Source: Alphaproteobacteria bacterium
GTDB taxonomy: Bacteria; Pseudomonadota; Alphaproteobacteria; CAAGCB01; CAG-977
Assembly (NCBI GenBank): GCA_017616015.1
Contig: JAFZYY010000019.1
Coordinates: forward strand, 486-64,485
Reading direction: 5' to 3'
Length of the DNA: 64,000 nt
The notes beneath the pieces are model-generated. The model made no database searches and was not told where the DNA came from. It worked only from the letters and a program-made list of their open reading frames with translations. Below, piece after piece: positions 16,286 to 60,532 of this stretch (position 1 is the stretch's first letter; each line of letters opens with the position of its first letter). The position numbers and the translations under genes are program-made.

Positions 16286-16291
16286 GCCGCA

Positions 16292-20440: not shown

Positions 20441-20442
20441 GT

Positions 20443-22459
<2,017 letters not shown>

Positions 22460-37316: not shown

Positions 37317-37415
37317 GAACAAATATCCTCTGAGAGTTTTTATTTTTTTAAGGCAAAAAAAATAAAAGGTCGTTAAAATTGATTTGGCTTTTGATTTTTT
37401 TATGAAAGAAAAAAA

Positions 37416-38183: not shown

Positions 38184-38665
38184 TCGGATTTTCTGAAATC
38201 CGCCGGCATTTGAAAATCTTCACACCCCCAAATCCCCTTTTTTCCCCGGATAGCTTTTGCTTCTTCCAAGAGAAGAGCTTCGTTGCTTTTTGAAATAACG
38301 ACAGCCATGCCGGCGCGAACCATCAGAGTGTTCAAACTTGTTTTTTCGCTGCCGGCCGTTATAAAACATTCGGCAAGCAGACGGCCGTAGACATCGCGAC
38401 CCGAGGGGACGCAGGAAACAGTACTTGAACCGATGAAGTCGGCTAAAGCTTTTTTGGCTTGAATGCCGCAGTTTGTTTTTTCTCCGCCGCATGTGCAGGT
38501 TTGCTTTATTTCCGGCGCGTCAACGGCGCTGAACCGGATTTTTTCCCTTCCGAGAATCAAAGTGTCTCCGTCCACAACGATTTGCCGCGTGCCAATTTTG
38601 TGCGAAATGAAAAAAGCCGCCGCCAGAACGGCCAAATATTTTATGAATGATTTCAGTCTGGTCAT
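38150..38665 (-). CDS. secreted staphylococcal-nuclease-like (SNase/thermonuclease) protein
   Basis: Signal peptide, then IVVDGDTLILGREKIRFSAVDAPE (SNase Ca-site/catalytic motif). Confidence 0.7.
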   Translation of the reverse strand: MTRLKSFIKYLAVLAAAFFISHKIGTRQIVVDGDTLILGREKIRFSAVDAPEIKQTCTCGGEKTNCGIQAKKALADFIGSSTVSCVPSGRDVYGRLLAECFITAGSEKTSLNTLMVRAGMAVVISKSNEALLLEEAKAIRGKKGIWGCEDFQMPADFRKSDQNSRSIRVSD

Positions 38666-38723
38666 TATCGTTGTTTTTGGTTATGATGTTTCCGATTTGA
38701 ATCAGAACACGGGGGACAACCGA

Positions 38724-44243: not shown

Positions 44244-46344
44244 TCTGAAAAAAACGGCGATTGCCTGCGCCGGTATCGCGTTGTTCGCCGTCCTTCTTTT
44301 CGGCGTGATGGCGGGTGATTTGCCCAATGCGTTGGAAGATTTGACAGCGCGGACGGACAAGCTCCAATTTGTTGACCGTTCGGGCGAACCGCTGAACGCG
44401 TCCTATCAGAATTACTGGAACGTTTCAGACGTGATGGCGTTGCACGAAATGCCGCCGTTGCTGATTCAGCTGTTTATCGCGGCGGAAGATAAAAACTTTT
44501 ACAGCCATTCGGGTGTAGACTGGCGGGCGAGGTTTGCGGCGTTATGGCAGAATGTCCGGGCAGGAAAGGTCATTCGCGGCGCCAGCTCGCTCAGCGAACA
44601 GGTCGTGCGCATGATTGTTCCCCGCAGACGCACGTTTTTTTCCAAGCTGTTGGAAACGGTCGACGTTTGGCGATTGGAACGGCGTTTTTTAAAAAACGAT
44701 ATTCTCGAGTTTTATCTTAATCAGGTTCCGTACGCGGCGAACAGGCGCGGGATAAAGCAGGCGTCGCGGTTTTATTTTTCGAAAACACCCGACCGATTGA
44801 GCATTCGGGAAATGACGGCGCTGATCGTTTTGGTGCGCGCGCCGACTTCGTTCGATCTGTATCGCGCAAAAGACAAAATCGACGCTTCAATCAACCGGCA
44901 GTTGCAACTGTTTTTTGAGCAAGGACTGATTAACGAAAACGAATTGAACGCGGCGTTACGGGAAAAAATGACGCTTGTTCCACCGGCTTTGACAATTCAG
45001 GCTCCGCATTTTTTGGAATATGTCCGATCTTTGACTCCCGAGGCGGGCAAGGCGGTCGAAACGACGTTGGACGCGTTTTTACAGAAGAAAGCGGCGGAAT
45101 TGACGCTTCAGCGGCTGAAAGATTTAAAATATCGCCATGTTTCAAACGCAGCTGTTCTGATTGCCGATCGTCGCACGGGGGAAATTCTGGCGTGGGTGTC
45201 TGAAACAATCAATCCCGATACAAAAGCGATTAATGCCGTTTTAGTGCCGCGTCAGCCCGCTTCCGCGCAAAAGCCTTTGCTGTACGGGGTGGCTCTGACG
45301 AAAGGCATGACGGCCGCGACAAAAATCAAGGACTCTCCGTTTTCCAAAGCGGTCGGACAGGGTGTGCATCACTTTAAAAATTACAGCCGGACGTATTACG
45401 GCGATGTGACTTTAAGACAGGCTCTGGGCAATTCTTTGAACATTCCCGCTTTAAAAACAATAGAATTTATCGGCTATCAGACGTACTACGATTTTTTGAA
45501 AAATTTCGGCTTCGTTCAATTTGACAAACCGGCTGATTTTTATCGCGAAGGGTTGGCGTTGGGTAACGCGGAAATGACATTGTTTTCATTGACGCAAGCT
45601 TATTTGATGTTGGCAAACGGCGGAATGACGAAATCGTTAAGGGTGTATAAAGCGCAGGAAATACCGGCGGAAAAGCGCGCCTTGCCCGAAACGGCGGCAA
45701 GTCTGATAGGGCATATTCTGTCCGATCCGTTGGCCAGACAGTGGGAATTCGGCACGGACAGCGTTTTGAATTTTCCCGTTCAGACGGCTGTGAAGACGGG
45801 AACGTCCACCGGATACAGGGACGCCTGGGCGATGGGATACAACAGGGACTTTGTCGCTGGCGTGTGGTTCGGGAATCTGAACTACGAACCGATGAGCGAC
45901 GTGACCGGCGCGGCGGGGCCCGCTTTGCTGTTGCGGTCAATTTTTACGGAACTGAACAAGATCAAAACATCGGGGGCTTTGGAGTTGTCGCCGGAGCTGG
46001 AAAAAAGAACCGTTGACGGCAAGACGGAATACTTCGATCCGAATGTGACGGAAACCTATCGGATAGAAGCTCCCGACTGCATTGTGACTTCGCCGGAAAA
46101 CGGAGTGATGCTGGCGATTGATCCGCGCATTCCGCCGGAGTATCAGCAATATCCGTTTTCTGTTTCTTGCGTGCCGGAAGGGGCGTCTGTCGTCTGGAAC
46201 GTAGACGGAAAAGAAGTCTGGCAGGGACGGGAAAACACTTTTCTGTGGCGCATCAGCCGCGGAAGTCATACAGTACGGGCGGCATTTGTCGGAGAAAACT
46301 TCGAAAAACAGGACTTGCCCGAACAAACCCTGATTGTGCGATAA
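44233..46344 (+). CDS. pbpC: penicillin-binding protein 1C (transglycosylase/transpeptidase)
   Basis: GT51 motifs (EDKNFYSHSGVD; RGASSLSEQ) and transpeptidase SAQK...KTGTS. TTG start at 44233 overlapping the A2M gene. Exact start uncertain. Confidence 0.8.
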   Translation: MRLSLKKTAIACAGIALFAVLLFGVMAGDLPNALEDLTARTDKLQFVDRSGEPLNASYQNYWNVSDVMALHEMPPLLIQLFIAAEDKNFYSHSGVDWRARFAALWQNVRAGKVIRGASSLSEQVVRMIVPRRRTFFSKLLETVDVWRLERRFLKNDILEFYLNQVPYAANRRGIKQASRFYFSKTPDRLSIREMTALIVLVRAPTSFDLYRAKDKIDASINRQLQLFFEQGLINENELNAALREKMTLVPPALTIQAPHFLEYVRSLTPEAGKAVETTLDAFLQKKAAELTLQRLKDLKYRHVSNAAVLIADRRTGEILAWVSETINPDTKAINAVLVPRQPASAQKPLLYGVALTKGMTAATKIKDSPFSKAVGQGVHHFKNYSRTYYGDVTLRQALGNSLNIPALKTIEFIGYQTYYDFLKNFGFVQFDKPADFYREGLALGNAEMTLFSLTQAYLMLANGGMTKSLRVYKAQEIPAEKRALPETAASLIGHILSDPLARQWEFGTDSVLNFPVQTAVKTGTSTGYRDAWAMGYNRDFVAGVWFGNLNYEPMSDVTGAAGPALLLRSIFTELNKIKTSGALELSPELEKRTVDGKTEYFDPNVTETYRIEAPDCIVTSPENGVMLAIDPRIPPEYQQYPFSVSCVPEGASVVWNVDGKEVWQGRENTFLWRISRGSHTVRAAFVGENFEKQDLPEQTLIVR

Positions 46345-46355
46345 AGGAATTAGAA

Positions 46356-47609
46356 ATGAAGAAACCCGAACTGCTTTTGCCCGCAGGATCTCCCGAAGCG
46401 ATGCAAACGGCTTTTTTATACGGAGCAGACGCCGTTTACTGCGGGTTGCCGTCTTTGTCTTTGCGGGCGGGAAACGGTTTTGATTTAAATACTCTGGCTC
46501 AGGCGATTTTACAAGCGCATAAGCGAAACAAAAAAGTCTATCTGACGTTAAATTTGTTTTCGCGCAACAGCGATATTGAGCGGTTGGCGGACTTTGCCGA
46601 AACGGTAAACGAGCTTCGTCCCGACGGGCTGATCATCTCCGATCCCGGCGTGTTTATGTTTATGAAAGAACATGCGCCCGACATTCCTTTGCACGTTTCG
46701 ACGCAGGCCAATGTCGGATCTTGGCTGACGGTCGATTTCTGGCGGTCTTTGGGGGCAAAGGTATGTGTTTTATCCCGCGAAACGCCGTTTGAGGACATCT
46801 GCGAAATCAAGCGCAAAATTCCCGATATGAAAATCGAGATGTTTATTCACGGCGCAATGTGCATGAGCTATTCGGGGCGGTGTCTGCTCTCCTCCTTTAT
46901 GACGGGGCGCAGCGCCAATCGCGGCAAATGCGCGCATGCCTGCCGTTGGAAGTATAAGCTTTATCTGGAAGAGGAACAGCGTCCGGGCGAATTTCTGCCG
47001 ATTGAAGAAGACGATCGCGGAACGTATATCCTTAATTCCAAAGATTTATGTCTGATGCCGTGCTTAAATAAAATTCTGGAAGCCGGAATCGATTTGTTGA
47101 AAGTCGAAGGGCGCAACAAGACGCCTTATTATGTCGCGCAAACGGCCAGAGCTTATCGTCACGCGATCGACGATTGGTTCGATAATCCGCGAAATTGGCG
47201 CTTTGAAAAGTACCAAGCGGAATTGGACACGCTTCAGAACAGAGGCTATACGACCGCTTTTTTCAACGGTGTACCGGATTCGGCGGCGCAGAATTACGAA
47301 ACGACTCAAAGCGCCGGCGACTGGCGCAACGCGGGCGTGATTTCCGCCTGGACGGACGAGGGGGCGGAGATGATCATTTATCAGAAAATCGAAGCGGGGG
47401 ATACGCTTTACTTTTTGCCGCCCGATCGTTTCGAAAGCGTTCCGGTCACATTGCTCCGGATTATTGACGGTTTTACCAAAAAGGAAGTGCCGGCTTTGTC
47501 CCCCGGCCGCGTCGGGCAGAGCATCTTTATCCCGATGGCTTTTTTCAAAGGATTGAAGCCTGAAAACCTGCCCGTTTTCACGGTCGCGCGCACAAAACTG
47601 AAAAGCTGA
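46356..47609 (+). CDS. peptidase U32 family (collagenase-like) protein
   Basis: MKKPELLLPAGSPEAMQTAFLYGADAVYCG start is typical of U32/YegQ/PrtC. ATG at 46356. The listed upstream extension is in-frame run-on. Confidence 0.75.
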   Translation: MKKPELLLPAGSPEAMQTAFLYGADAVYCGLPSLSLRAGNGFDLNTLAQAILQAHKRNKKVYLTLNLFSRNSDIERLADFAETVNELRPDGLIISDPGVFMFMKEHAPDIPLHVSTQANVGSWLTVDFWRSLGAKVCVLSRETPFEDICEIKRKIPDMKIEMFIHGAMCMSYSGRCLLSSFMTGRSANRGKCAHACRWKYKLYLEEEQRPGEFLPIEEDDRGTYILNSKDLCLMPCLNKILEAGIDLLKVEGRNKTPYYVAQTARAYRHAIDDWFDNPRNWRFEKYQAELDTLQNRGYTTAFFNGVPDSAAQNYETTQSAGDWRNAGVISAWTDEGAEMIIYQKIEAGDTLYFLPPDRFESVPVTLLRIIDGFTKKEVPALSPGRVGQSIFIPMAFFKGLKPENLPVFTVARTKLKS

Positions 47610-47680
47610 AAGAACGGCTTGATTCCCGCTGTTTTTTTGTTAAAATGCGGACAAGATTAAAACAGTCGGGGAAAATCATT

Positions 47681-48349
47681 ATGAAAACGGCTTTACACAT
47701 TTGCGCTATAACTTTTTTGCTGTCGGCGTGCGTGACAACAAAACAAACGGAAACCTCTGCGGCCGTAAAATTGTCGTTGACGGATCGCGTGCAGGCGGCA
47801 GTTACCGAAGTTCAGAAAAGCGTCACCGAAGCTTTGCCCGACGAAATCGCCGGATTAAAGTCTGTCGAACCCGTTGCCGATCGTGAAAAAAATCAGCGCG
47901 GCGCCGGCTTTACCCGCGCTTATACGGCAGACGACATCGTTGCAACCGTTTTTATTTACAATAATCAGAATTTCGGCGTTTCCGAGGAAGATGAAGTCAC
48001 AATGGATTCTTTGATGGATAAGCATTTGCAGGAATTCCTGTCTTTGCAGGATTCGGGACTGTACGCAAATGTCAAAACAGGAGCAAAAAAACAGCGCGAG
48101 TTTAAATGGAAATCCATAAAGTATCAGGTGTTGGAAGCCGACGTTCTGTTTTCTCAGAAAGAGGAAGCAAAAAAGTCTTTTCTGGTTTTGGGCGCGAACA
48201 AAGACCTGATGTCTTATATCAGAATTCGCTATACCTATCCCAAATCCAAACAGGCGGAAATGAATAAAAAACAGTCCGTTTTCACGCGCACGGTGATGAC
48301 GGTTTTGCATGATTTTGCTGCGGCTCAGCAGACGCCTGCGGCTCAGTAA
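47681..48349 (+). CDS. lipoprotein, unknown function
   Basis: MKTALHICAITFLLSAC lipobox. Confidence 0.55.
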   Translation: MKTALHICAITFLLSACVTTKQTETSAAVKLSLTDRVQAAVTEVQKSVTEALPDEIAGLKSVEPVADREKNQRGAGFTRAYTADDIVATVFIYNNQNFGVSEEDEVTMDSLMDKHLQEFLSLQDSGLYANVKTGAKKQREFKWKSIKYQVLEADVLFSQKEEAKKSFLVLGANKDLMSYIRIRYTYPKSKQAEMNKKQSVFTRTVMTVLHDFAAAQQTPAAQ

Positions 48350-48362
48350 ACGGGGGCTGACC

Positions 48363-48785
48363 ATGAAGCATTTAATTCTGCTGTTTTCGCTGTTTCTGTC
48401 GGGTTGCCTTTTATTGGATCCCGCCGCCGAAGTCGGTCAAACGTTGCACTATATGAATCAGGCTTATATGGATAAAGAGCTTGACGCGTTTATGAGCTTT
48501 GTCAGTCCGGATTATCAGGGGCGCGACAATCTGCAAATCGCGGTGGAAAACGACTTTGCCGGTTTCGCTGACGTCGAGTACAGAACGTCCGTTTTTCAAA
48601 CGAAAGTTAATAAAGAGACAGGCGATTATCAGGCGTCGGTTTACTATTTCAGAACAGCGCGGTCAAACCGCTACGGCGTCGACAATCAAAGCGGCGAAAC
48701 CGTTTTGACTTTTCATAAAGATAAAGACGGCTTAAAGCTGACCAAAATGCCCGAACCGCCTTTGTACGGTTTGATTGTTCCTTAA
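48363..48785 (+). CDS. lipoprotein, unknown function
   Basis: MKHLILLFSLFLSGC lipobox. 141 aa. Confidence 0.55.
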   Translation: MKHLILLFSLFLSGCLLLDPAAEVGQTLHYMNQAYMDKELDAFMSFVSPDYQGRDNLQIAVENDFAGFADVEYRTSVFQTKVNKETGDYQASVYYFRTARSNRYGVDNQSGETVLTFHKDKDGLKLTKMPEPPLYGLIVP

Positions 48786-48796
48786 AAGAAATCTCT

Positions 48797-51316
48797 ATGA
48801 CTGCCGAAGAAATTTTACAGGCGTACGAAGCGGCCTATGAACAGCCCCGGCCGTTTGACGCAAAACACCCGCAGGACGGTACATTGTCCCGCCGGCAGGA
48901 CGGATTGCCGCCATTGCCGTTGAACGCCGAACAAACGGCGGCCTGCGTCGAATTATTGGAAAAAGGCGAACAAACGGATAAGGCTTTATCTCTGTTGCTG
49001 AACCGTGTTCCCGCCGGAACCGGAGACGCCGCAAAAATCAAAGCCGGTTTTTTAGGGCAGGTCGCTTCGGGAAAAACGACTGTCGGCGGATTGACCGACG
49101 AACAGGCGATTGAGCAGCTGGGATATATGAAAGGCGGGCAGAATATCCCCGTTTTGATTAACCTGTTGACAAAGCGGAAAACGGCGGCGAAAGCGGTCGA
49201 AGTTCTGTCTCGTTTGGTGCTGATTCATCAGGCGGTCACCGACGTCGCGCGGCTGTACAGGACAGGGAACAAAGCGGCGGCTAAACTGCTGGAGTCTTGG
49301 GCAAAGGCGGAATGGTTCTCCCGTCGTCCCGAATTTGAAGCGGAAACGAAACTTGCCGTCTTTAAAATTCCCGATGAAATCGAGGCGTCAACCGACTTCC
49401 TTTCCCATTCCAAAGGCGGACACACGCGCACGGACGTTCCTTTTCACGGCAGGCACTATTTCATGAATGAAGAACTGCTGAACGAATTGAACGCTCTGAA
49501 GGCTAAAAATCCGGAAATTCAGGTCGCTTTGGCGGCGGATAAAATCGGAACGAGTTCTTCCAGAAAATCCGGCATGAACAATGTCGAATGGAATATCGGC
49601 ATCGAAAACGAAGATACGCGCTTTCTTCCCGATAAAAAGACTCGCGCCGTGATTTTCGCCGGCCGCGTTTTAGGCCCTATCTTTGCCAAGACCGCCGAGG
49701 ATATGGGGTCGATCATCGTTCGCACGAACACCGACGTTTTGCAAACGGGAATGATTGTCCGCGCCGTGTGGCAAAAAGGGCTGATTCTGTCCGAAAGCGG
49801 TGAAAAAATCGCGGAGTTCGAACCGCTGTCGCAAAGCAGTCTGGATATGCTGCGCGCGGGCGGCGCGACGAATTTCCGCATGGGGCGGATACTGACGGCG
49901 GCCGCGCAAAAGATTTTGGGAAAAACTTTCTCTTTGCCGTATGCGGAAAAAAAGATTGAACAACAAAACCGCCCGATGACGGCGGCGCAAAAGATCATCG
50001 CGAAAGCCGCCGGCGTGAAAAGCGTTTGTTCCGGACAAATCGTTTACGCCAAAGTCGACACGGTCGCTTCTCAGGACACGACGGGCGGCATGACCGTCCA
50101 GGAATTGCAGGGGACTTTGGCGGCGATGACGCTGGCCGTGCCTTTGCTGCTTCAGTCTCAATGCCATAACGCGGCGATGGGATTCAGGACGGAAGCGGTT
50201 GTCGCGGCAAATAAAAAACTGGTCGATTATATGCGTTCAATCGGCGGCATTACGCTGAACATGGGGGACGGCATCATTCATTCGTGGTTAAACGAGTTGG
50301 TCGTTCCGAATACGATTGTTGTCGGCGGGGATTCGCACACTCGCACGCCGACCGCGCTGAGTTTCCCTTTAGGCTCCGGCGGTATTGCCGAAGCGGCGGC
50401 GACAGGCGTGACGGAAATCACCGTGCCGGACAGCGTTCTGGTGTGTCTGACGGGCGAATTTAAGCAAGGCGTCACCGCGCGCGATCTGGTCAACTATATC
50501 CCCTATAAAGCTCAAAAGCTTTTCGGAAAGAACGTCTTTGAAGGGACGATTATCGAGTTTCGCAGGACAGGCTCTCTTTTTGACATGATTGACGTGTTCA
50601 AGATGACGAACGCTTCGGCGGAGCGATCCGCGGCGGCGGCGTATTTCGAGCAGGACGCTCAAACGGTCGCGGACTATGTCAAAAATCATTCTCTGCCGAT
50701 TGTCAAACGGCTGATCGAAGCCGGATACGACAACAACGGCGCTTTGGAAAACAGAAGGAAAGCCCTTGAAGAGTACGTCGAAAATCCGCAGGCGGTGACG
50801 GCGGACGACAAGGCGGAATACGCGTATGTTCTGGATATTGATTTATCCGAAATCGATCAGCCGTATGTCGCTTGTCCGCATACGCCGGACAATGTGAAGC
50901 CTTTGGCGGAACTGGCGGGGACGAAAGCGGAGTTTTGTTTTATCGGGTCGTGCATGTCCGGCAAAAAGGACTTCGAGGCGTTTGAACGGCTGACGAGAGG
51001 GGCGGAAAAACTTGCCGTCGAAACATGGGCGGCGCCGCCGACGCGGCTGATCGAAGCGGAACTGAAAGATGTGCTGGGCGCTTTGAAAAAACGGGGCGTT
51101 CGTGTCGAAATTCCGGGCTGTTCTTTGTGCATGGGCAATCAGGAGCGCGTGCAGGGCAAACGTAATGTTCTGACGACGTCGACGCGGAATTTCAAAGCGC
51201 GTATGGGCGATGAGGCGTCCGTTTATCTGGTGTCGGCGGAACTGGAGGCCGTCGCGGCGAAAACGGGCGTTTTCCCCGATGTCGAAACTTATTTTAAGGC
51301 GGTAAACAATGGTTGA
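48797..51316 (+). CDS. acnB: aconitate hydratase B (bifunctional aconitase/2-methylisocitrate dehydratase)
   Basis: Collinear with E. coli AcnB: HEAT-like N-domain (AEQTAACVELLEKGE), swivel and catalytic domains (SQDTTGGMT; GGDSHTRTP; CSLCMGNQERV). 839 aa. Confidence 0.88.
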   Translation: MTAEEILQAYEAAYEQPRPFDAKHPQDGTLSRRQDGLPPLPLNAEQTAACVELLEKGEQTDKALSLLLNRVPAGTGDAAKIKAGFLGQVASGKTTVGGLTDEQAIEQLGYMKGGQNIPVLINLLTKRKTAAKAVEVLSRLVLIHQAVTDVARLYRTGNKAAAKLLESWAKAEWFSRRPEFEAETKLAVFKIPDEIEASTDFLSHSKGGHTRTDVPFHGRHYFMNEELLNELNALKAKNPEIQVALAADKIGTSSSRKSGMNNVEWNIGIENEDTRFLPDKKTRAVIFAGRVLGPIFAKTAEDMGSIIVRTNTDVLQTGMIVRAVWQKGLILSESGEKIAEFEPLSQSSLDMLRAGGATNFRMGRILTAAAQKILGKTFSLPYAEKKIEQQNRPMTAAQKIIAKAAGVKSVCSGQIVYAKVDTVASQDTTGGMTVQELQGTLAAMTLAVPLLLQSQCHNAAMGFRTEAVVAANKKLVDYMRSIGGITLNMGDGIIHSWLNELVVPNTIVVGGDSHTRTPTALSFPLGSGGIAEAAATGVTEITVPDSVLVCLTGEFKQGVTARDLVNYIPYKAQKLFGKNVFEGTIIEFRRTGSLFDMIDVFKMTNASAERSAAAAYFEQDAQTVADYVKNHSLPIVKRLIEAGYDNNGALENRRKALEEYVENPQAVTADDKAEYAYVLDIDLSEIDQPYVACPHTPDNVKPLAELAGTKAEFCFIGSCMSGKKDFEAFERLTRGAEKLAVETWAAPPTRLIEAELKDVLGALKKRGVRVEIPGCSLCMGNQERVQGKRNVLTTSTRNFKARMGDEASVYLVSAELEAVAAKTGVFPDVETYFKAVNNG

Positions 51317-53090
51317 GGCTTTTATAGATGTGGCTCTGCCCGAAGAATCGGCGGGCGCGGCATATGAAATCGTCAAGCGGGAACTGATAACGCCGTTTGA
51401 AAATTTTATCGGCAAAAAGCGTCTGCGCGAACACGACTGGAGCCTGAAAGGGCGGATTCAGACTAACGGGGAAATAATCCGCGAAACAATCGAAATGGCG
51501 GGCGGCAATCCGAAAGGCGTTCTTATCAAAGGGCCCGGCATTACGCCGACAAAAGAGCAAACGCAGGCTGTCCTGACCGAACTGGGCGATGAACGCAAAC
51601 CGGAAGAATTGAGCAAATTGGTGACGGGGACTCCGAACGGCTATCTGCGCGGCCATTGGTTGGTCAAAGGCAATCTGGAACGTTATGAAAATCCGGGATT
51701 ATCCGACTTGCTGAAAGTTTCTCTGCCGACGTATGACAAAGCCGGAAAACTTGATGTTTTATATCTTGGCGGCGGTCGGGCGAAGGACGCTTCCTTTTTT
51801 GTTTTGGAAAACGAAGCGGAAGTCCGCGTCGATTTTAACCGGGAAACGGTCAGAAAAGCCGAAAAGCTGTCGGCCGATTCCGCCGTTTATGTCAAAATCA
51901 CCCGTCGAAAAGACGTGGTTGATTTATGCAATCGCGCGATCGAAAAAGGCGACGAAATCGTCTTTATGTCGAAATATACAGTGCGGCCGAATTTGGACGG
52001 TGAAAAGAAAAGAATCTATAACGACTGCCGTGAAAAACACGGGTTGGATCGGCGCGAAGGTAATCAGGGAGATATTGTCGATGCGGCTTTCGCTCGTTTG
52101 CTGGCGAAACCGGAGCCGCGGAATTTAACAGTATTGGTGCCGGATCCGTCTTACGGTCCGAAAATCGCGACTGTTTTGAACGCCGTTTACGCCGCAGGTG
52201 TCCGAAAACCGGTCGGAGAATTTTCCGTTTGCCGTTTTTCCGCGGGAAAAAGCGAATACGGCGGCTTGAATCAGGTTGTTTCGGAAAATGGGGAATACCG
52301 GTTGCATATCGGCGCAAAGGAAATTCGCATTCCCGTCAAAGCCGGCGATATGTTCGAAGAAATGCACTATGATTACAAAGACGCCGAACGGTATGTGAAG
52401 CAGGTATTCCGCCAACTTTCTTTCAAAAATTACGATCGCGTCGTTTTTGCTTTTGATGAATCGGATTTGTATGACGCTCCCGTTGTCAAAGCCGTGCGAA
52501 AAGAGGCGTTCAGACTGAAAAAAGTCGAAGGACAGGACTTTGTCGTGATGAAGCCGGACGCGGCGGCGGTGATGATGTTTACCGCGCCGTTGCCCGGCAA
52601 GACATGCTACGCTTACGATAACCTGTGGGGCGATATTGTTTCGGACGCGATGGATTTAGGGGCAAGCATCGCTTCAATCAATTCGGTGATTTTACTTGCA
52701 GACGGGCGGATTTGGCCGGAAATGGGCGGCGCGGGGACAGCGCCGGATCTGATGAATTTGTTTAAAAAAGAAGGTTTCTGGCGCTACGATCCGATACCGA
52801 TTATTGAAGGATTGGCCATTGGATTTCAGCAGGCGGCATTGGCGGAACCGGATAATATGCCTCTGAACAGCTACGCTAATTCTTTGCACGAAGCGTATGT
52901 CCGCGTTTTAAAGCAGGGTATTGCAACTCCGGATCTTATCGGAAAATTAAACACGAAACAGCAAAAGGGCGTTGACACGGCTTCTTTTGTTTTAGCGGTG
53001 AGGGTGGAATTGTTAACACTTTTGGGTTTAAAAAAAGAAGCTGAAGCACAAGCTTTAAGATTAAAACAGGAAATGAAAGAAATCAGATGA
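51309..53090 (+). CDS. icd: isocitrate dehydrogenase homolog, monomeric type but unusually short (593 aa)
   Basis: C-terminal block YDNLWGDIVSDAMDLGASIASINSVILLADGRIWPEMGGAGTAPDL aligns with monomeric IDH (...GNVLRDYLTD...[23 protein letters not shown]). Further blocks (VKAGDMF; VVFAFD) also align. Overlaps acnB (8 nt) and gltA (ATGA). Confidence 0.55.
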   Translation: MVEAFIDVALPEESAGAAYEIVKRELITPFENFIGKKRLREHDWSLKGRIQTNGEIIRETIEMAGGNPKGVLIKGPGITPTKEQTQAVLTELGDERKPEELSKLVTGTPNGYLRGHWLVKGNLERYENPGLSDLLKVSLPTYDKAGKLDVLYLGGGRAKDASFFVLENEAEVRVDFNRETVRKAEKLSADSAVYVKITRRKDVVDLCNRAIEKGDEIVFMSKYTVRPNLDGEKKRIYNDCREKHGLDRREGNQGDIVDAAFARLLAKPEPRNLTVLVPDPSYGPKIATVLNAVYAAGVRKPVGEFSVCRFSAGKSEYGGLNQVVSENGEYRLHIGAKEIRIPVKAGDMFEEMHYDYKDAERYVKQVFRQLSFKNYDRVVFAFDESDLYDAPVVKAVRKEAFRLKKVEGQDFVVMKPDAAAVMMFTAPLPGKTCYAYDNLWGDIVSDAMDLGASIASINSVILLADGRIWPEMGGAGTAPDLMNLFKKEGFWRYDPIPIIEGLAIGFQQAALAEPDNMPLNSYANSLHEAYVRVLKQGIATPDLIGKLNTKQQKGVDTASFVLAVRVELLTLLGLKKEAEAQALRLKQEMKEIR

Positions 53091-54382
53091 CGGCAAAAAC
53101 GGTTACTTTGAAATATGATGGCAGGGAATACGAGTTTCCCGTGCTTTATTCGACAACCGGGGAAGGCTGTATCGATATTTCCAAACTGCGCGCCGAAACC
53201 GGATTGACAACGCTTGATCCCGGATTCGGCAATACGGCGTCTTGTGTCAGTAAGATTACTTACGTCAACGGGGAAAAAGGCATTTTGCGCTATCGCGGCA
53301 TTCCGATTGAAACGGTGGCTGAAAAAATGACGTTTGTCGAAACGGCGTGGCTGCTGATTTACGGGCGTTTGCCGACAATGGCTGAAATGAAAAAGTTCAG
53401 CTCTCGGCTGACGAATAACGAATTGTTGCACGAAGGTCTGCTGCATCATTTCGACGCTTTTCCGCCGAACGGGCAGCCGATGTCGATTTTATCCGCCGTC
53501 GTTAACTCTTTGATTTGCTATTCGCCGGAAATTATGGACACGACGGACGAGGAAGCCATGCGCAACGCCGTCGCCGCGATTATTTCCAAAGTACGTACGA
53601 TTGCCGCTTTTTCCTATCGTAAAGCGATGGGATTACCTTTTGTATATCCGGATCCGGCCAGAAGCTACTGCGACAATTTCCTGCACATGATGTTTTCCAT
53701 TCCCAACAAGTCGCATCAGCCGACGCAGGAAGCCGTCAAGGCGCTGAACCTGTTTTTGATGTTGCACGCGGATCATGAGCAGAACTGTTCAACCTCGACC
53801 GTGCGCATTGTCGGGTCGGCGGAAACAAATTTGTTTTCTTCGGTGGCTTCGGGAATTTGCGCTTTGTGGGGCAAGCTGCACGGTGGAGCAAACGTCGCCG
53901 TTTTTGAAATGTTGTCCCGATTGGCTAAAGGCGATGAAACGCTCGATAAGTTCATCGAACGCGTCAAACGTAAGGAAGTGCGCCTGATGGGATTCGGTCA
54001 CAGGGTTTACAAAACGTTTGACCCGCGCGCGAAGATTTTGAAAAAAGCGGTTTTTGATTTGTTGGAAGCGGAACGCGTTGCCGATCCGCTGATCGATATT
54101 GCTTTAAAATTGGAAGAAAAAGCGTTGAACGACAGCTATTTCAAAGAACGCAACCTGTATCCGAACGTTGATTTTTATTCGGGTATGATTTTGCGGGCTT
54201 TGCGGATTCCGCTGAATATGTATACGGTGATGTTCGCGATCGGCAGAATGCCGGGGTGGATAGCGCATTGGCGGGAAAACAACGAGGATCTGCGTCGTTT
54301 GGCTCGTCCGCGTCAACTGTATTCGGGGCCTGTGGAAACGCCGTTTGTTCCGTTGGATCTGCGTCCTGACGAAGAATTGTAA
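53087..54382 (+). CDS. gltA: citrate synthase
   Basis: GFGHRVYK catalytic His motif, plus HADHEQN and MFAIGRMPGWIAHW. 431 aa. Confidence 0.9.
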   Translation: MTAKTVTLKYDGREYEFPVLYSTTGEGCIDISKLRAETGLTTLDPGFGNTASCVSKITYVNGEKGILRYRGIPIETVAEKMTFVETAWLLIYGRLPTMAEMKKFSSRLTNNELLHEGLLHHFDAFPPNGQPMSILSAVVNSLICYSPEIMDTTDEEAMRNAVAAIISKVRTIAAFSYRKAMGLPFVYPDPARSYCDNFLHMMFSIPNKSHQPTQEAVKALNLFLMLHADHEQNCSTSTVRIVGSAETNLFSSVASGICALWGKLHGGANVAVFEMLSRLAKGDETLDKFIERVKRKEVRLMGFGHRVYKTFDPRAKILKKAVFDLLEAERVADPLIDIALKLEEKALNDSYFKERNLYPNVDFYSGMILRALRIPLNMYTVMFAIGRMPGWIAHWRENNEDLRRLARPRQLYSGPVETPFVPLDLRPDEEL

Positions 54383-54390
54383 GGAGAAGT

Positions 54391-55377
54391 TTGATGATTT
54401 ACGATAATTTGGACAGCAAGAAAAACGAATTGGATCAACAACCGCCGTTGCCGTTGGATCTGTTAAAGGATCTGAGAAAAAAAATGGAATTGGAAACGGC
54501 TTACGTCGGCGGTTATTTTGACGGTTCCAGAGTAACGTGCAAAGAAACGGCCAAGATTTTATATGAAGACAAAACAGTTGAAAAATATTCTTTAACGGAA
54601 CATATCCGGGTTTTAAACGCTGCCAAAGTGTTCGAAATGATTGCCGAGCTGGCATTGAAAGTCAATCATCAGATCGACGATTCGGACGTAAAAAATATCC
54701 ATCGTATTGTTGTGCGCAACCTGGACGACAACAACGGCGGCATGTATCGCGGTTTTACGCTGAATTTTCAGGTCGGCTCGCATGAACTGCCCGATTCAAT
54801 TCGTGTTCAGCGCATGATGAATGATTTCGGCATGTGGCTGTTTTCCGCCAGAACTTTACACCCTGCGGCAATTGCGGCGGAAGCGCATTTAAAACTGATG
54901 TCCATTCAGCCTTTCGGACAGGGAAACGCCTGCGTCGCCCGCTTTTTGATGAATTTGATTCTGATGCGCCACGGTTATCCGCCGGCTTTGTTTTCCAGAC
55001 GCGAAAAGGCGGAATACTGGGAAACGCTGGAAAAAGCGATTTTTGAAAACGATCGCGAAGGCTATGACAAACTGATTTGCCGCGCCGTCAATCGGGCGTT
55101 GGAGCTTCATTTGAACACGGCTCAAAAGAAAGAGGTCAATGAAGTGGAGCACGATCCGTATTTCCTCAGAATCGGGCAGTTGGCCAAAGAATGCGGCGAA
55201 CGCGTTTCGACTTTGCGTTATTGGACCAGCATGGGATTGTTGGAAACGGCGGGCAAAACGTCGGCGGACTACACGCTTTATTCCTCGGATATTCTGCCGC
55301 GCATCAGACGTTTGAAAGAATTAAAAGACCAGCGTTATACATTGGGGGAAATCCGCCGCAAATTGCGGGAAGAATAA
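54391..55377 (+). CDS. Fic/DOC-family protein with degenerate active-site motif and C-terminal MerR-type HTH
   Basis: The Fic core IQPFGQGNACVARFLMNLILMRHGYPP replaces the HPFx(D/E)GNGR consensus with Q..Q..A.C. The C-terminal LRIGQLAKECGERVSTLRYWTSMGLLE is a MerR-like HTH. Starts 9 nt after gltA with an SD aaggag. Confidence 0.65.
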   Translation: MMIYDNLDSKKNELDQQPPLPLDLLKDLRKKMELETAYVGGYFDGSRVTCKETAKILYEDKTVEKYSLTEHIRVLNAAKVFEMIAELALKVNHQIDDSDVKNIHRIVVRNLDDNNGGMYRGFTLNFQVGSHELPDSIRVQRMMNDFGMWLFSARTLHPAAIAAEAHLKLMSIQPFGQGNACVARFLMNLILMRHGYPPALFSRREKAEYWETLEKAIFENDREGYDKLICRAVNRALELHLNTAQKKEVNEVEHDPYFLRIGQLAKECGERVSTLRYWTSMGLLETAGKTSADYTLYSSDILPRIRRLKELKDQRYTLGEIRRKLREE

Positions 55378-55469
55378 GACTTTCGGGCTAAATCCAAAGT
55401 CGGCTGGAAAGGTCTTTTTCCGAAACTTATCATTTTATTCTGGTAAGGTTTTGAAAGAAGGAGACCGGT

Positions 55470-55826
55470 ATGGCTGTCGAAGAAAATCTGGTTGCCAAAA
55501 AAATGGCAAAAGCGTTGGCGTTTATGTGCCTGAACGAGCATTTCAAATTGCCGTTGCACAGCGGGCGCGATCCCGTTTCCCGCACGGGGGACTATACGGA
55601 CGTGGTCGTTACGGACGCTAAAGGCCGGAAAATGGCTTGGAATCAGGCTTGCCGAGTGTCTTATCGGGAGCGCGAAAAAATGATGGAAGACGTGGCGGAA
55701 GGCATTTACGACTTTCTTGTGAATATCGAAACGGAAACTTACGCCAAAAGATTGGAAGACGCTTACCGCGCGAGCGTCCATTGGAAAAGCGCCGACGCTT
55801 TCGGTCGCAGGAAAAAGCACGGGTGA
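55470..55826 (+). CDS. hypothetical protein
   Basis: 118-aa ORF with an SD (gaaggag). Confidence 0.4.
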   Translation: MAVEENLVAKKMAKALAFMCLNEHFKLPLHSGRDPVSRTGDYTDVVVTDAKGRKMAWNQACRVSYREREKMMEDVAEGIYDFLVNIETETYAKRLEDAYRASVHWKSADAFGRRKKHG

Positions 55827-55903
55827 TTTTTTTTGTTTCTTTCGGACGGGATTCAGGGTAAAACAGGAACATACTTTTGTTTAGTTACGGATTTGTTCCT
55901 GAA

Positions 55904-57067
55904 ATGAAAAATTCTGCCCGTTGCGGACTTCTTCCCGTCGGTATGACGGATACTCTGCCGCCCTTCGTCGATTATGAGGCCGGCGCCGTTTCCGTGTTGA
56001 TGTCCGTACTGCAAGGCGGCGGCTATCAGCGGGTGTCTCCGCCGTTGTTGGAATATGAAGAAACGCTGCTGTCCGAAAAGTACGGCGATCTGTCGAATCA
56101 GACTTTTCGCGTGACCGACGCCGTTTCCGGCCGGATTATGGGTATTCGGGCGGATATGACGCCGCAGATAGGCCGGATTGCCGTCACACGCCTGAAAGGG
56201 GAGCCTCGTCCCCTGCGTCTGGCGTATGCGGGCTCCGTGGTCAGAATGTTTCCGACACAGCTTAATCCCGCCCGTCAGATTTTGCAGGTCGGCGCGGAAC
56301 TGATCGGTGCCGACTGCGCGAAGGCCGACGCCGAAATCATTTTGTTGGCGGCTGAAGCTCTGGAAAAGCTGGGCGTGCCGCATTTCGTGTTTGATTTGAA
56401 TTTGCCGACGATGTTTCCGGCTTTGTGCCGGGCGTTCGGGATTGATCCCGAAGATCGGGAAAAAATGCTTCTTTCGCTGAATCAAAAGGATTTTTCCGCT
56501 GTTCTGGCCATATTGGAAAACACGAACAGAAAAACGCGCGAAAGCAAAGATCTTTTTGCTTCTTTGTTTCAGGCGTTCGGCGATTGCGACCGCGTTCTGG
56601 ATATTTTGCGTCCGTTATCTCTGCCTGCCGAAGCTGCCGCCGAATGCCGCCGGTTGACGGAAGTCGTTTCTTTGCTGAAAAAGGAAAAAAACACTCTGCC
56701 ATTGACGATAGATATTTTTGAAAACCGCGGGTTCGAATATCATTGCGGCATAGGCTTTTCCGTCTTTTCAAAACAGAGCGAACAGGAATTGGGGCGCGGC
56801 GGACGGTATTTCGCCGGCATTGAGGGCGAACCGTTTGAACCTGCCGTCGGCATCACGCTGTTTTTACAGGATATTTTACCCCTTTTGGAAAAGCGCGACG
56901 ACCGCAAACGGATTTATGTGCCGTTTGACGTTTCTTTCAAAGAAGCGGCGGAATTGCGCGCAAAAGGATTTGTCACCGTCTGCGGATTAAAAGAGGGCGG
57001 ACGGGAAGAGGCGCAGAGGCAAAACTGCGATTGTATTTACACGGGCGGACGGATAGAGCCGCTTTAG
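55904..57067 (+). CDS. hisZ: ATP phosphoribosyltransferase regulatory subunit (HisRS paralog)
   Basis: HisRS-like class II motifs without an anticodon-binding domain (GLLPVGMTDTLP; FRVTDAVSGRIMGIRADMTPQ; QVGAELIG). Lies upstream of purA, as in many proteobacteria. ATG at 55904 is preferred over the TTG at 55877. Confidence 0.7.
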   Translation: MKNSARCGLLPVGMTDTLPPFVDYEAGAVSVLMSVLQGGGYQRVSPPLLEYEETLLSEKYGDLSNQTFRVTDAVSGRIMGIRADMTPQIGRIAVTRLKGEPRPLRLAYAGSVVRMFPTQLNPARQILQVGAELIGADCAKADAEIILLAAEALEKLGVPHFVFDLNLPTMFPALCRAFGIDPEDREKMLLSLNQKDFSAVLAILENTNRKTRESKDLFASLFQAFGDCDRVLDILRPLSLPAEAAAECRRLTEVVSLLKKEKNTLPLTIDIFENRGFEYHCGIGFSVFSKQSEQELGRGGRYFAGIEGEPFEPAVGITLFLQDILPLLEKRDDRKRIYVPFDVSFKEAAELRAKGFVTVCGLKEGGREEAQRQNCDCIYTGGRIEPL

Positions 57068-57095
57068 CTTGGTTCATTTGTAAGGAGCAGAATTT

Positions 57096-58388
57096 ATGAC
57101 CAATATCGTAATCATCGGCGCTCAGTGGGGCGATGAGGGCAAAGGGAAAATCGTTGACCTGTTGAGCGAACGCGCCGATGTCGTCGTTCGTTTTCAGGGC
57201 GGCAACAACGCCGGGCACACGCTGGTCGTGGACGGAGTGACCTATAAACTTTCTTTGCTGCCGTCCGGCATCGTCCGCGGCAAGCTGTCGGTCGTCGGCA
57301 ACGGCGTCGTCGTCGATCCGTGGGCATTGCGCGACGAAATGAAGCGCATTACGGATCTGGGGACGAAGATTTCTCCCGACGTGTTGAAGATTTCCGATCA
57401 GGCGACGTTGATTCTGCCGTTGCACCGCGAGCTGGATCAGATGAGCGAAGCTGCTGCCGGCAAAGGCAAAATCGGCACGACCGGCCGCGGTATCGGTCCC
57501 GCTTATCAGGATAAAGTCGCCCGCCGCGCCATTCGTGTCGGCGATTTGGCGGAAAAAGAATCTTTGGAAGCTAAAGTTGATAATCTTTTGCTGTTCCATA
57601 ACGCTTTGCGCAAAGGCTGGGGACAGCCCGAAGTCGACAAAGCCGATCTGATGCAAACGCTGGACGAGATCGCCGAATTCATTTTGCCGTACGCCATTCC
57701 GGCATGGAAAATCCTGTCCGAACAGCTCAAAAACGGCAAATCGTTGTTGTTTGAGGGCGCTCAGGCGACGATGCTGGACAATGATTTCGGCACCTATCCG
57801 TTCGTGACCTCTTCGAACACGATCGCGGGGCAGGCGGCTGTCGGCTCCGGCGTCGGCATGAAAGACATCGACAAAGTCATCGGCGTGGTCAAAGCTTATA
57901 CAACGCGTGTCGGCTCCGGTCCTTTCCCGACGGAATTGTTTGACGCGGACGGCGATCGTATCCGCGAAGTCGGACGCGAATTCGGAACCGTGACGGGACG
58001 TCCTCGCCGTTGCGGGTGGTTTGACGCCGTTTTGGTGCGTCAGGCGATTTTGGTCAACGGCGTGCAGAATCTGGCCGTGATGAAGCTGGATATTCTGGAT
58101 CAGTTCGACGAGATCAAAGTGTGTGTCGGCTATGAGCACAAAGGCAAAAAGCTGGATTATTATCCGATGCAGATGAACGCGCAGGCGGAAGTCAGGCCGG
58201 TCTATGAAACGCTGCCCGGTTGGAAAAGTTCGACTTTCGGTATTCGGGAATATGACAAACTGCCCGAAAACGCCAAGAAATATCTGGCTCGTCTGGAAGA
58301 GTTGCTGGGCGTGAAAATCGGCATGATTTCCACCAGTCCGGAACGCGAAGACACGATTATTCGTATTGATCCGTACGAAAAGAAATAA
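57096..58388 (+). CDS. purA: adenylosuccinate synthetase
   Basis: P-loop [11 protein letters not shown], plus GTTGRGIGP and TSPER. 430 aa. Confidence 0.92.
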
Positions 58389-58399
58389 AAAAACTTTTT

Positions 58400-58460
58400 A
58401 TTTAATATAAATCATGTAAAATAAGGGGAAAAGCAGAAAGCTTCTTTCCCTTATTTTTTT
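58400..58460 (+). terminator. putative terminator after purA
   Basis: Imperfect hairpin gggaaaagcagaaagcttctttccc followed by ttatttttttacc. Confidence 0.4.
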
Positions 58461-58474
58461 ACCAGAAGGAAAAA

Positions 58475-60532
58475 ATGGCTGAAACGAACACAGAAACACA
58501 GCAACCGCAGTCTTCCGCTCCTACTGATTCTTTTGTAACGCGCAAAGAAGATTTTTCTCTTGTCCGCGGCAAATACAGAGTCTACTTCAATTTACCTTTG
58601 GCTTTATTGGATATGCCAAATGCCAAAGCTTTTCAGGCCGAAGACATATCGGCTCCAGAACATAAAATTTTCGCATTGGTCTGCGATCCCAAATTGCCGA
58701 TCAGAAAAGACCATATCAAAGCCAGAAGCGGGGCAAAAATCGACGGATTGCTTCCGTTAGTGGACGCGGGATCGGCTTTTTGGGTTCCGATTAATCGTAA
58801 GACTATGATCTTACTGTATGAAATGCCTTTAGGCGGACGGGTTCTGATTTCCAAGGCGTACGGTAAGATTTTACCGGACGAAGAAGCTGAAAAAATTTCA
58901 AAATGGATTCGACCGCTGTTGGTCGGAATAGGAAATCTGGCCGTGCGCGGATTGACGCACAGAGCCATTCGGCCGGATAATCTGTTTTACATGGACGCTG
59001 ATAAAACAAAAGTCGTTTGGGGCGATTGCATTTCCGCTCCGCCCGGATACGATCAGCCCCCGGCCTTTGAAACCATAGAAACCTCTATGTGTCAGAAAGA
59101 GGGAAAAGGAAACGGAACGACAGCAGATGATTTGTACGCTTTCGGGGCTACGTTGCTTTGTTTGAGTGTCGGTTACAATCCGGTTGAAAACCTTTCTCCC
59201 GAAGAATTGCTGGAGCTGAAAATTTATAAAGGTTCTTACGCCACACTGATTGGCGAAGAACGGGTTCCTTTGGCTTTGATCGAGCTGTTTCGGGGGTTGC
59301 TGGCAGATAATATCAATCAACGCTGGGACACGTCGTCAACGACGTTATGGGCGGACGGACGACGCCTGACGCCGGTGCAGGCAAGGGCGGTAAAAGCTTC
59401 TCAGCGTCCGTTTTTGTTTAATAATATCGAATATTTTTCTTTCCGGCCGTTGGCTTATGCTTTTTCCAAAAACTGGGATATGGCGATAGATACAATCCGC
59501 TCGGAAAAATTTCTGAGCTGGATAGAACGCGGCTTTGACGATAAAGATACTGCGGACTCAATCCGAAAATCGATCGATATGGCGTTGGTGCGCTTTTCAA
59601 CAAAAGAAAAACAGGACGACTTTTTCGTTGCCAGAACATGCATGATTTTGGATCCTCTTGCGCCGTTGAGAGTGCGTGAATGCATGTTTTTGCCAGACGC
59701 GTTGGGAACAATGCTGGCAATGAGTATCGAAGACAATAAAAAAATAAAAAAACTGGTCGGATTGATCGCAACCGGATACTTGGAAAGCTGGTATGAATTC
59801 CATAAAGATATGGTCGCCGAACAAAATATTAAGAACTGGCAGATTACTTTGCAAAAACCGACAATGGGAATGGGCATCGAAAAACTGCTGTACGATTTAA
59901 ACGAAGGTCTGCCCTGCCAAAGTCCGTTGCTTGTTAAAGACTATGTCGATGAAATCAGGGATTTGTTGCCGGCTTTGGAAGACGTCGTCAAGAAAAACGC
60001 TCAGAAAGCCGAACCGATTGACAGGCATATCGCCGCTTTTATTGTCGTTAAGTTCGGCGCGAAGGTTTCGGAATATATGTCATGGCTGAATTCGCCTAAA
60101 GAAAGTCTGCACATTCAGGGCATTATGAATATTTTCGCAACGTTGCAAAAAATGTTCGGTCCGGAACATCTTTATGCGTTGACCAGCTGGATCGGCAGTA
60201 TGGTTGCTCCTGTGATTAACAGTTACCATAATCTTGAAAAACGCCAACAACTGGAAAAAAATTTACCCAAAGTTATTCGAAAAGGAAATTTTTTGGAACT
60301 TTGTTCTTTTCTGGACGATAAGCAGGAACGTTTGTATGACGTCAGTTACTTTGAACAGGCGAAAAAGGAATACGCCAAGCTGTCAGAAGAAATTGACTTC
60401 TTGGACGGTAACCGCGAAAAACGCGAAGAAGAAGGGCTGATGCTCGGCAATCAAATTGCCGCTGTTATTTGTTTCGGCATTGCCGTTTTAACGATGTTCC
60501 TGCTGTTGCTGACACGGCTGTTAAGGGGATAG
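58475..60532 (+). CDS. eukaryotic-like protein kinase fold protein, predicted pseudokinase, with C-terminal TM anchor
   Basis: Catalytic-loop-like LTHRAIRPDNLF (HRD becomes HRA), a WGDC in place of DFG, and a subdomain-IX-like ADDLYAFGATLLCL. A C-terminal hydrophobic helix (IAAVICFGIAVLTMFLLLL). Confidence 0.55.
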   Translation: MAETNTETQQPQSSAPTDSFVTRKEDFSLVRGKYRVYFNLPLALLDMPNAKAFQAEDISAPEHKIFALVCDPKLPIRKDHIKARSGAKIDGLLPLVDAGSAFWVPINRKTMILLYEMPLGGRVLISKAYGKILPDEEAEKISKWIRPLLVGIGNLAVRGLTHRAIRPDNLFYMDADKTKVVWGDCISAPPGYDQPPAFETIETSMCQKEGKGNGTTADDLYAFGATLLCLSVGYNPVENLSPEELLELKIYKGSYATLIGEERVPLALIELFRGLLADNINQRWDTSSTTLWADGRRLTPVQARAVKASQRPFLFNNIEYFSFRPLAYAFSKNWDMAIDTIRSEKFLSWIERGFDDKDTADSIRKSIDMALVRFSTKEKQDDFFVARTCMILDPLAPLRVRECMFLPDALGTMLAMSIEDNKKIKKLVGLIATGYLESWYEFHKDMVAEQNIKNWQITLQKPTMGMGIEKLLYDLNEGLPCQSPLLVKDYVDEIRDLLPALEDVVKKNAQKAEPIDRHIAAFIVVKFGAKVSEYMSWLNSPKESLHIQGIMNIFATLQKMFGPEHLYALTSWIGSMVAPVINSYHNLEKRQQLEKNLPKVIRKGNFLELCSFLDDKQERLYDVSYFEQAKKEYAKLSEEIDFLDGNREKREEEGLMLGNQIAAVICFGIAVLTMFLLLLTRLLRG

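Follow-up and report, generated by a model that had tools for sequence, protein, structure and literature searches.

The acnB-idh-gltA cluster and its conservation

The stretch of DNA analysed here, 64,000 nucleotides (nt) of contig JAFZYY010000019.1 from an Alphaproteobacteria bacterium (assembly GCA_017616015.1) and referred to below as the window, carries three plus-strand open reading frames (ORFs) in the order acnB, idh and gltA, which encode the oxidative-branch enzymes for the conversion of oxaloacetate and acetyl-CoA to 2-oxoglutarate (Table 1). AcnB scores above the equivalog cut-off of NF006690 (805 vs 782 bits) and below that of TIGR00117 (673 vs 1287 bits), and contains the Pfam domains Aconitase_B_N, Aconitase_2_N and Aconitase; GltA lies above the equivalog cut-off of NF004126 (548 vs 505 bits) and matches Pfam Citrate_synt with an expect value (E) of 2.3e-128. 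The middle gene is the subject of this work. It encodes a predicted isocitrate dehydrogenase (IDH) of 593 amino acids (aa), called compact IDH in the following, which is 148 aa shorter than the Azotobacter vinelandii enzyme (AvIDH, 741 aa) and falls below the ~740 aa of monomeric, type III IDHs. In the preliminary description of this DNA, the three frames were said to be contiguous and to overlap by 8 and 4 nt; the coordinates proved to be exact, and most related loci keep both overlaps.

Table 1. Features of the acnB-idh-gltA cluster and the adjoining gene, in window coordinates.
Feature	Position (nt)	Strand	Basis
acnB, aconitate hydratase 2 (AcnB), 839 aa	48797..51316	+	NF006690, Pfam
8-nt overlap ATGGTTGA, idh start within acnB stop region	51309..51316	+	
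idh, compact single-chain (type III-like) IDH, predicted, 593 aa	51309..53090	+	Pfam PF03971, AlphaFold2, Foldseek, hhalign, dN/dS
Substrate-binding loop TPNGYLRGHWLVKGNLER (T108, N110, R114, R125), predicted	51630..51683	+	Alignment to AvIDH and human IDH1
Inserted pseudo-subunit module, ~residues 126-300, putative second small/clasp copy	51684..52208	+	hhalign to IDH1
K222	51972-51974	+	Within inserted module
D258	52080-52082	+	Within inserted module
RFSAGKSEY, R309 and putative catalytic Y317	52233..52259	+	Alignment
Metal-binding motif NLWGDIVSD (D442, D446; residues 438-446), predicted	52620..52646	+	
Cofactor loop EMGGAGTAPDL, D480/L481 at discriminating positions	52719..52751	+	Comparison with AvIDH K588/H589 and IDH1 R314/H315
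EGFWRYD, R492 (= AvIDH R600) and D494 (= D602)	52770..52790	+	Alignment
TPD, D542 at the AvIDH R649 position	52926..52934	+	Less certain alignment
4-nt overlap ATGA, gltA start / idh stop	53087..53090	+	
gltA, citrate synthase (GltA), 431 aa	53087..54382	+	NF004126, Pfam Citrate_synt
Fic-domain and MerR helix-turn-helix fusion, 328 aa	54391..55377	+	Pfam Fic, MerR_1

A locus scan with one genome per GTDB species yielded 27 related loci, whose hosts are all uncultured Alphaproteobacteria from human gut, rumen and horse faeces, including 'Acetobacter sp. CAG:977'; RF32 is a label for this gut alphaproteobacterial lineage. The order acnB-idh-gltA is kept in every locus that is sufficiently long, and so are a U32 peptidase gene and two small ORFs upstream. 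Among 24 loci, 20 share exactly the same 8-nt overlap, the 4-nt overlap is kept in 24 of 25, and the ratio of nonsynonymous to synonymous substitution rates (dN/dS) of idh against six relatives is 0.08-0.11, i.e. the gene is under purifying selection. Because gene order and overlaps are kept and dN/dS is low, the arrangement is not due to chance, and acnB-idh-gltA is a conserved gene cluster under selection. The conserved overlaps between stops and starts further suggest co-transcription and translational coupling of the three genes. In one of the loci, on scaffold HF994935 of Acetobacter sp. CAG:977 (L025, 6001-7796), the idh frame comes to a stop after 537 codons, with the tblastn match ending at 7575, likely owing to a frameshift or an assembly error of this older scaffold.

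At the protein level, compact IDH is 100% identical to a database entry titled 'MAG: NADP-dependent isocitrate dehydrogenase [Alphaproteobacteria bacterium]', where MAG stands for metagenome-assembled genome, and it has about 75 close clusters at 64-86% identity, every one of them 592-595 aa long. A general IDH function has therefore already been assigned by automatic annotation. What has been undescribed so far is the compact architecture, its type II-like features, the probable difference in cofactor and the rare wider clade. IDHs are classified into three subfamilies, of which type III is defined by chains of ~740 aa (PMC8287583, PMC10574006), and the searchable literature to 2026 mentions neither a ~590-aa form nor a fourth type; a literature search on RF32 and the tricarboxylic acid (TCA) cycle returned nothing relevant.

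Fold and architecture of compact IDH

Sequence profiles recognize compact IDH weakly and in part. The Pfam family of monomeric IDHs, PF03971, is matched with 40.6 bits against a gathering threshold of 25 bits, residues 271-541 aligning to positions 367-644 of the 734-position model; the NCBIfam equivalog TIGR00178 (monomer_idh) scores 26.4 bits and remains below its cut-off of 950, PF00180 stays below threshold at 20.7 bits over the shared C-terminal core, and the type II equivalogs NF006156 and TIGR00127 are not reached (29.6 vs 335 and 27.1 vs 397 bits). In a sequence search of the PDB, the top match is AvIDH (1ITW) with an E of 5e-6, restricted to residues 316-547.

Structure and profile-profile comparisons cover the whole chain. 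An AlphaFold2 model built on an alignment of 13 family sequences has a pLDDT of 89.1 and a pTM of 0.88, and the best 14 PDB chains retrieved with it by Foldseek belong without exception to type III IDHs (TMq 0.69-0.78, E 1e-30 to 1e-24, 15-16% identity; 7Y1U, 5KVU, 1ITW, 4ZDA, 6G3U, 1J1W, 5Z16 and 2B0T), followed by type II dimers at a TM of ~0.5. With hhalign, compact IDH aligns over its full length to nine canonical monomeric IDHs (Prob 99.9, E 1.7e-32, 566 columns, 20% identity). The similarity is thus not confined to a short motif, as the length of the profile alignment and the full-length fold match attest, and the earlier proposal of a monomeric-type IDH about 150 aa short and forming a distinct subfamily is borne out by the fold (TM 0.76-0.78) and by the full-length profile alignment. 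Taken together, the middle gene very probably encodes a catalytically competent IDH on the single-chain (type III) plan in a minimal version, with its activity predicted from sequence and model; as judged from the alignments, it is a distinct subfamily, far from ordinary type III with its chains of ~740 aa (PMC8287583).

How a chain of this size could accommodate a complete active site is indicated by comparison with dimeric human IDH1, whose sequence was verified against 1T09. In a first hhalign alignment, residues 14-114 and 355-574 of compact IDH match residues 18-102 and 180-411 of IDH1 (Prob 97.5, E 7e-12); in a second one, residues 112-300 match IDH1 124-285 (Prob 96, E 4e-9), placing K222 on K212 and D258 on D252. 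Two independent alignments, each significant, thus place different parts of compact IDH on the same small-domain region of IDH1, and on this comparison residues ~126-300 are a second, inserted small/clasp copy that would complete the active site in cis, which is the type III principle. When the profiles of the two putative repeats, residues 120-300 and 301-460, were compared directly with each other, no significant match resulted (E 0.14, Prob 0.4), so the internal duplication rests on the separate alignments to IDH1.

Relative to AvIDH, compact IDH lacks segments 59-67, 107-111, 114-124, 266-310 (45 aa), 328-341 (14 aa), 361-368 and 689-699 as well as the C-terminal end from ~704 to 741 (~38 aa). 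The missing part had been sought in the clasp-like region, which does not hold: the losses are scattered, and both beta-meanders of that region are retained. Since the meanders carry only small gaps, what is mainly lost is the helical insert that separates Lys255 from Asp350 in AvIDH, and by alignment this insert of ~60 aa between the catalytic Lys and Asp, rather than the clasp, is the largest one. The segment lengths put this on firm ground. The spacing from the catalytic Lys to the Asp (K-to-D) is 36 in compact IDH, 91-103 in canonical type III and 40-43 in type II enzymes; the spacing between the two Arg residues (R-to-R) is 11, 6 and 9-10, the distance from the N terminus to the first Arg 114, 130-148 and 100-102, and that from D446, the last metal-binding Asp, to the C terminus 147, 181-199 and 130-136, respectively. 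By these lengths, compact IDH is best described as a type II-like subunit with a minimal inserted module.

Active site, cofactor and predicted role

Residues were mapped onto AvIDH, for which the 1ITW sequence was reconstructed and its numbering checked. S132 of AvIDH corresponds to T108 of compact IDH (T or S across the family), and hhalign places N135/R139/R145 on N110/R114/R125, K255 on K222 and D350 on D258; Y420, D548 and D552 correspond to Y317, D442 and D446. The functional roles of these AvIDH residues are those assigned to them in the 1ITW work. Apart from the T/S exchange at position 108, all mapped substrate-binding, metal-binding and catalytic residues are invariant both within the family (13 members) and among 19 distant relatives. 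The substrate loop also aligns to IDH1, with T108/N110/R114/R125 on S94/N96/R100/R109, and Thr/Ser108 and Asn110 presumably form the pair that recognizes the gamma-carboxylate in IDHs (S113/N115 in EcIDH). A further Arg, R309, is invariant eight residues ahead of Y317 and occupies the position of the substrate Arg of dimeric IDHs (R132 in IDH1), where AvIDH has Leu412.

By analogy, D258, D442 and D446 would hold the divalent metal, and Y317 and K222 would act as the acid-base pair. The Lys and the third metal Asp that dimeric IDHs borrow from the partner subunit, here K222 and D258, would be supplied in cis, while T108, N110, R114, R125, R309, Y317, D442 and D446 would complete the active site of compact IDH beside them. 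Of the motifs quoted in the preliminary description as diagnostic of monomeric IDHs, both NLWGDIVSD (438-446) and EMGGAGTAPD (471-480, nt 52719-52748) are present, and only the diagnostic value of the former has to be given up: NLWGDIVSD is a generic motif shared by every beta-decarboxylating dehydrogenase, the form with Gly-Asp being that of dimeric IDHs (NYDGDVQSD in human IDH1), and the AvIDH-type sequence is NVLRDYLTD. The N-x-x-G-D-x-x-S-D form found in compact IDH is accordingly of the dimeric type. EMGGAGTAPD and EGFWRYD, on the other hand, resemble the monomeric ETGAGGSAPK and EGYLRWD.

The retained residues bear on two other readings of the protein. One is that it acts on another substrate of the beta-decarboxylating dehydrogenases, such as homoisocitrate, 3-isopropylmalate, tartrate/D-malate or, given the 2-methylisocitrate activity of AcnB, a methyl-branched analogue. 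Promiscuity is known in this superfamily, PF00180 matches weakly over the shared C-terminal core (20.7 bits) and the annotation gives AcnB 2-methylisocitrate dehydratase as a second activity, but the isocitrate-specific contacts are all kept (Ser/Thr108, Asn110, three Arg, the Tyr, the Lys and three Asp), the closest folds and profiles are all IDHs, the gene always lies between those for aconitase and citrate synthase, and the methylcitrate cycle requires a lyase rather than a dehydrogenase. We therefore consider a different substrate very improbable. Even less credible, to the point of being almost negligible, is that compact IDH is a degenerate, non-catalytic relic left by deletions in a monomeric IDH: its length stays within 592-595 aa in 27 species and in over 70 clusters, dN/dS is ~0.09, each catalytic residue is invariant and the fold is confidently predicted, against which stand the 148 aa by which it is shorter than its relatives and its very low equivalog profile scores.

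The cofactor is less clear-cut. In type III enzymes, NADP+ is selected by His589, Arg600 and Arg649 with Lys588 adjacent; NAD-specific CaIDH has Met583, Leu584, Asp595 and Ser644 at those positions, and the NAD-specific type II enzyme OlIDH carries Asp326/Met327 in place of Arg314/His315 of IDH1 (PMC4360740, PMC8287583, PMC10574006). Compact IDH has D480, L481, R492 and D542 where the NADP enzymes have Lys, His, Arg and Arg, so that one of the four residues is basic; across the family, position 480 is D or A, 481 is L, M or F, 492 is R or K, and 542 is D. Because D480, L481 and D542 are non-basic and the Asp-Leu pair mirrors NAD-specific enzymes, we somewhat favour a preference of compact IDH for NAD+, or dual specificity, over one for NADP+. 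The 'NADP-dependent' database label is unsupported by the residues at these positions.

The contrary view would be that compact IDH is an ordinary NADP+-dependent monomeric IDH with trimmed loops and no real subfamily of its own, which we regard as unlikely. It could draw on the names in NCBI and nr, where identical or similar proteins are called 'NADP-dependent isocitrate dehydrogenase', on the PF03971 match above the gathering threshold and on the conservation of R492 at the NADP-binding Arg600 position. It is difficult to reconcile, however, with a TIGR00178 score of 26 vs 950 bits, with the mere 15-20% identity to solved type III enzymes, with the E of only ~1e-13 on residues 271-539 that canonical monomeric IDHs reach, and with segment differences that are systematic (K-to-D 36 vs 91-103, R-to-R 11 vs 6). 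Moreover, the changes His589 to Leu, Lys588 to Asp/Ala and Arg649 to Asp are of the types found in experimentally NAD-specific IDHs.

Not all observations fit a compact, single-chain, probably NAD+-using IDH encoded in an operon, and the following weigh against it. The sequence-profile support for compact IDH is weak and partial (PF03971, TIGR00178, PF00180). Arg547 of AvIDH, which precedes the first metal-binding Asp, is replaced by Gly441, a loss for which R309, to judge from alignment and spacing, may compensate. R492, the counterpart of the NADP-binding Arg600, is retained and NADP-like, and the alignment around D542 and R649 is of low confidence. Finally, promoter and terminator scans over 46000-58600 gave counts equal to those of shuffled controls, so no operon boundaries can be called.

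The exchange of Arg positions, R at 412 and G at 547 in AvIDH numbering, is also present in P0111 and P0112, two type III proteins of 741-746 aa, and for this reason the 'arginine swap' is not unique to the compact clade, nor is Arg547 universal among type III enzymes. The same two proteins also have Asp-Leu at the cofactor site, so that within canonical type III, too, the arginine swap varies together with a putative NAD-type pocket.

Together, the three encoded enzymes outline one pathway: GltA would make citrate, AcnB would isomerize it, and compact IDH would oxidatively decarboxylate the resulting isocitrate to 2-oxoglutarate. Its likely role in an anaerobic gut bacterium would be to supply 2-oxoglutarate for glutamate and nitrogen assimilation. 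A further homologue, P0076 (49% identity, 629 aa), is encoded (L028, 4941-7840) after genes for glutamine synthetase, orotidine monophosphate (OMP) decarboxylase and a Crp-family regulator, with no acnB/gltA cluster; type IV secretion genes lie nearby in the same locus. Since this homologue adjoins glnA, a supply of 2-oxoglutarate for nitrogen assimilation is suggested.

IDH reactions are reversible, and the hosts are known from MAGs associated with gut and rumen anaerobes, so one might ask whether compact IDH works mainly in the reductive direction, carboxylating 2-oxoglutarate in a reversed or branched TCA cycle. We deem this highly unlikely in view of the linkage to citrate synthase rather than to ATP-citrate lyase, the lack of CO2-fixation genes in the 64-kb window and the homologue beside glutamine synthetase, which again suggests 2-oxoglutarate supply for nitrogen assimilation.

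Relatives, surroundings and comparison with known systems

An exhaustive search with a profile, run over 1.84 billion representatives, returned only 123 hits at E <= 1e-3, the compact family itself being condensed into one representative. Over its full length, compact IDH is matched by about 20 metagenomic proteins of 589-813 aa, which are rare and unnamed (E 1e-68 to 1e-30). For canonical monomeric IDHs, the E is no better than ~1e-13, on residues 271-539, and for type II IDHs it is 1e-10 or weaker, on residues 428-572. These rare relatives (P0078-P0098 and P0109) have the same invariant catalytic set, a K-to-D spacer of 35-59 aa and mostly an Asp-Leu cofactor site, and differ from compact IDH in sharing less than 50% identity with it and in carrying variable N- and C-terminal extensions. 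Neither acnB nor gltA was found beside the genes of the distant relatives, which stand alone and add no functional evidence, and a cluster look-up gave them no name beyond 'isocitrate dehydrogenase'.

In a neighbour-joining tree, which is crude given saturated distances and no bootstrap, the canonical type III enzymes form one clade, and the compact family and the rare relatives a grade between type III and type II. This placement hints that the compact clade belongs outside the crown group of canonical type III enzymes. It is tempting to go further and to regard compact IDH and its rare relatives as a fourth IDH lineage, minimal, single-chain and probably NAD+-using, between type II and the 740-aa type III enzymes; we put this forward as a tentative, rather doubtful possibility. 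If true, the lineage would keep the state just after a duplicated small/clasp domain had entered a type II-like subunit and would thereby show the origin of monomeric IDHs, and both the swap from Arg309/Gly441 to Leu412/Arg547 and the helical insert between Lys and Asp would be later steps.

With its type II-like segment lengths and motifs, compact IDH would offer a testable intermediate for the long-standing question of how dimeric IDHs gave rise to monomeric ones, and of whether NAD+ was the ancestral cofactor. The conserved 65-kDa form would be the smallest single-chain scaffold known to contain a complete IDH active site and could be useful for engineering. Correcting the 'NADP-dependent' label would also bear on metabolic models of the abundant but uncultured Alphaproteobacteria of gut and rumen, where it affects redox balance and the supply of 2-oxoglutarate and glutamate.

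The immediate surroundings of the cluster are conserved as well. Starting 9 nt past the gltA stop, the Fic-MerR fusion gene (Fic/DOC domain at aa 95-191, C-terminal MerR helix-turn-helix at aa 260-327) is kept downstream of gltA in ~25 of the 27 related loci and may be a fourth operon gene, co-transcribed, or a regulator. Directly upstream of acnB, two ORFs of 234 and 158 aa (47645-48785, +) without Pfam match are kept in related loci at 26-78% identity. As the cluster is part of a long string of co-directional genes, the transcription unit could extend from the upstream 158-aa ORF to the downstream Fic-MerR gene. No second IDH and no further TCA gene was found within the 64-kb window.

Elsewhere in the window, an ATP synthase operon (15392-22292, -) includes an AtpR subunit (PF12966), a hallmark of N-type (Na+-translocating) ATPases. 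The region 1560-5076 (+) is low in GC (0.35-0.41 vs ~0.50 elsewhere) and contains genes for two methyltransferases, an EcoRI-like one for adenine and a C5 one for cytosine, next to two ORFs to which Pfam gives no hit; in all probability it is a restriction-modification island gained by horizontal transfer. A bacterial alpha-2-macroglobulin (A2M) of 1926 aa is immediately followed by a PBP1C-type transglycosylase/transpeptidase (38463-46344, +), the known A2M-PbpC pairing, and an 846-aa fusion of a circularly permuted ATP-grasp with an Alpha-E domain lies beside a transglutaminase-like protein (34006-37427, -), a conserved pair of unknown function. Two long ORFs, of 685 aa (58475-60532, +) and 478 aa (32445-33881, -), have no Pfam match.

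Finally, we would like to place the cluster and its middle enzyme among known systems. That genes for citrate synthase and IDH lie together to serve the oxidative branch is familiar from citZ-icd-mdh of Bacillus subtilis and from similar TCA operons; unlike citZ-icd-mdh, the cluster described here has the order acnB-idh-gltA, its frames overlap, and its IDH resembles type III instead of belonging to type I.

With the type III enzymes, exemplified by A. vinelandii AvIDH (1ITW/1J1W), Corynebacterium glutamicum (2B0T), M. tuberculosis ICD2 (5KVU), Campylobacter corcagiensis (7Y1U) and Acinetobacter AbIDH2 (5Z16), compact IDH appears to share the single chain with a domain I and a pseudo-dimeric domain II, the Lys and Asp provided in cis, and the motifs ExGxGG(S/T)AP and EG(Y/F)xR(W/Y)D. 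It differs from them in its length of 593 aa vs 723-751 aa, in its identity of 15-20%, in the absence of AvIDH 266-341, several loops and ~49 C-terminal residues, in having Gly441 for Arg547 and Arg309 for Leu412, and in its cofactor set of D/L/R/D vs K/H/R/R. Closest in the last respect are the NAD+-specific Campylobacter enzymes CaIDH and CcIDH, which likewise have Leu in place of His589 and no basic residue in place of Arg649, and which have been proposed to be ancestral-like within type III (PMC4360740). CaIDH, however, is 731 aa long and carries Asp at the Arg600 position, where compact IDH has Arg492, and Met583 where compact IDH has Asp480.

In other features, compact IDH is closer to the type II enzymes. 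Its K-to-D spacing (36 vs 40), R-to-R spacing (11 vs 9) and C-terminal tail (147 vs 135) are similar to those of IDH1 (1T09), and so are the Gly-Asp metal motif, an Arg 7-8 residues before the catalytic Tyr and the sequence GxxTPDL, which compares with GFMTKDL; its Asp-Leu pair parallels Asp326/Met327 of NAD-specific OlIDH from Ostreococcus. What sets it apart from the ~410-aa type II subunit is the extra module of ~175 aa between R125 and R309, with which a partner subunit would no longer be needed to complete the active site.

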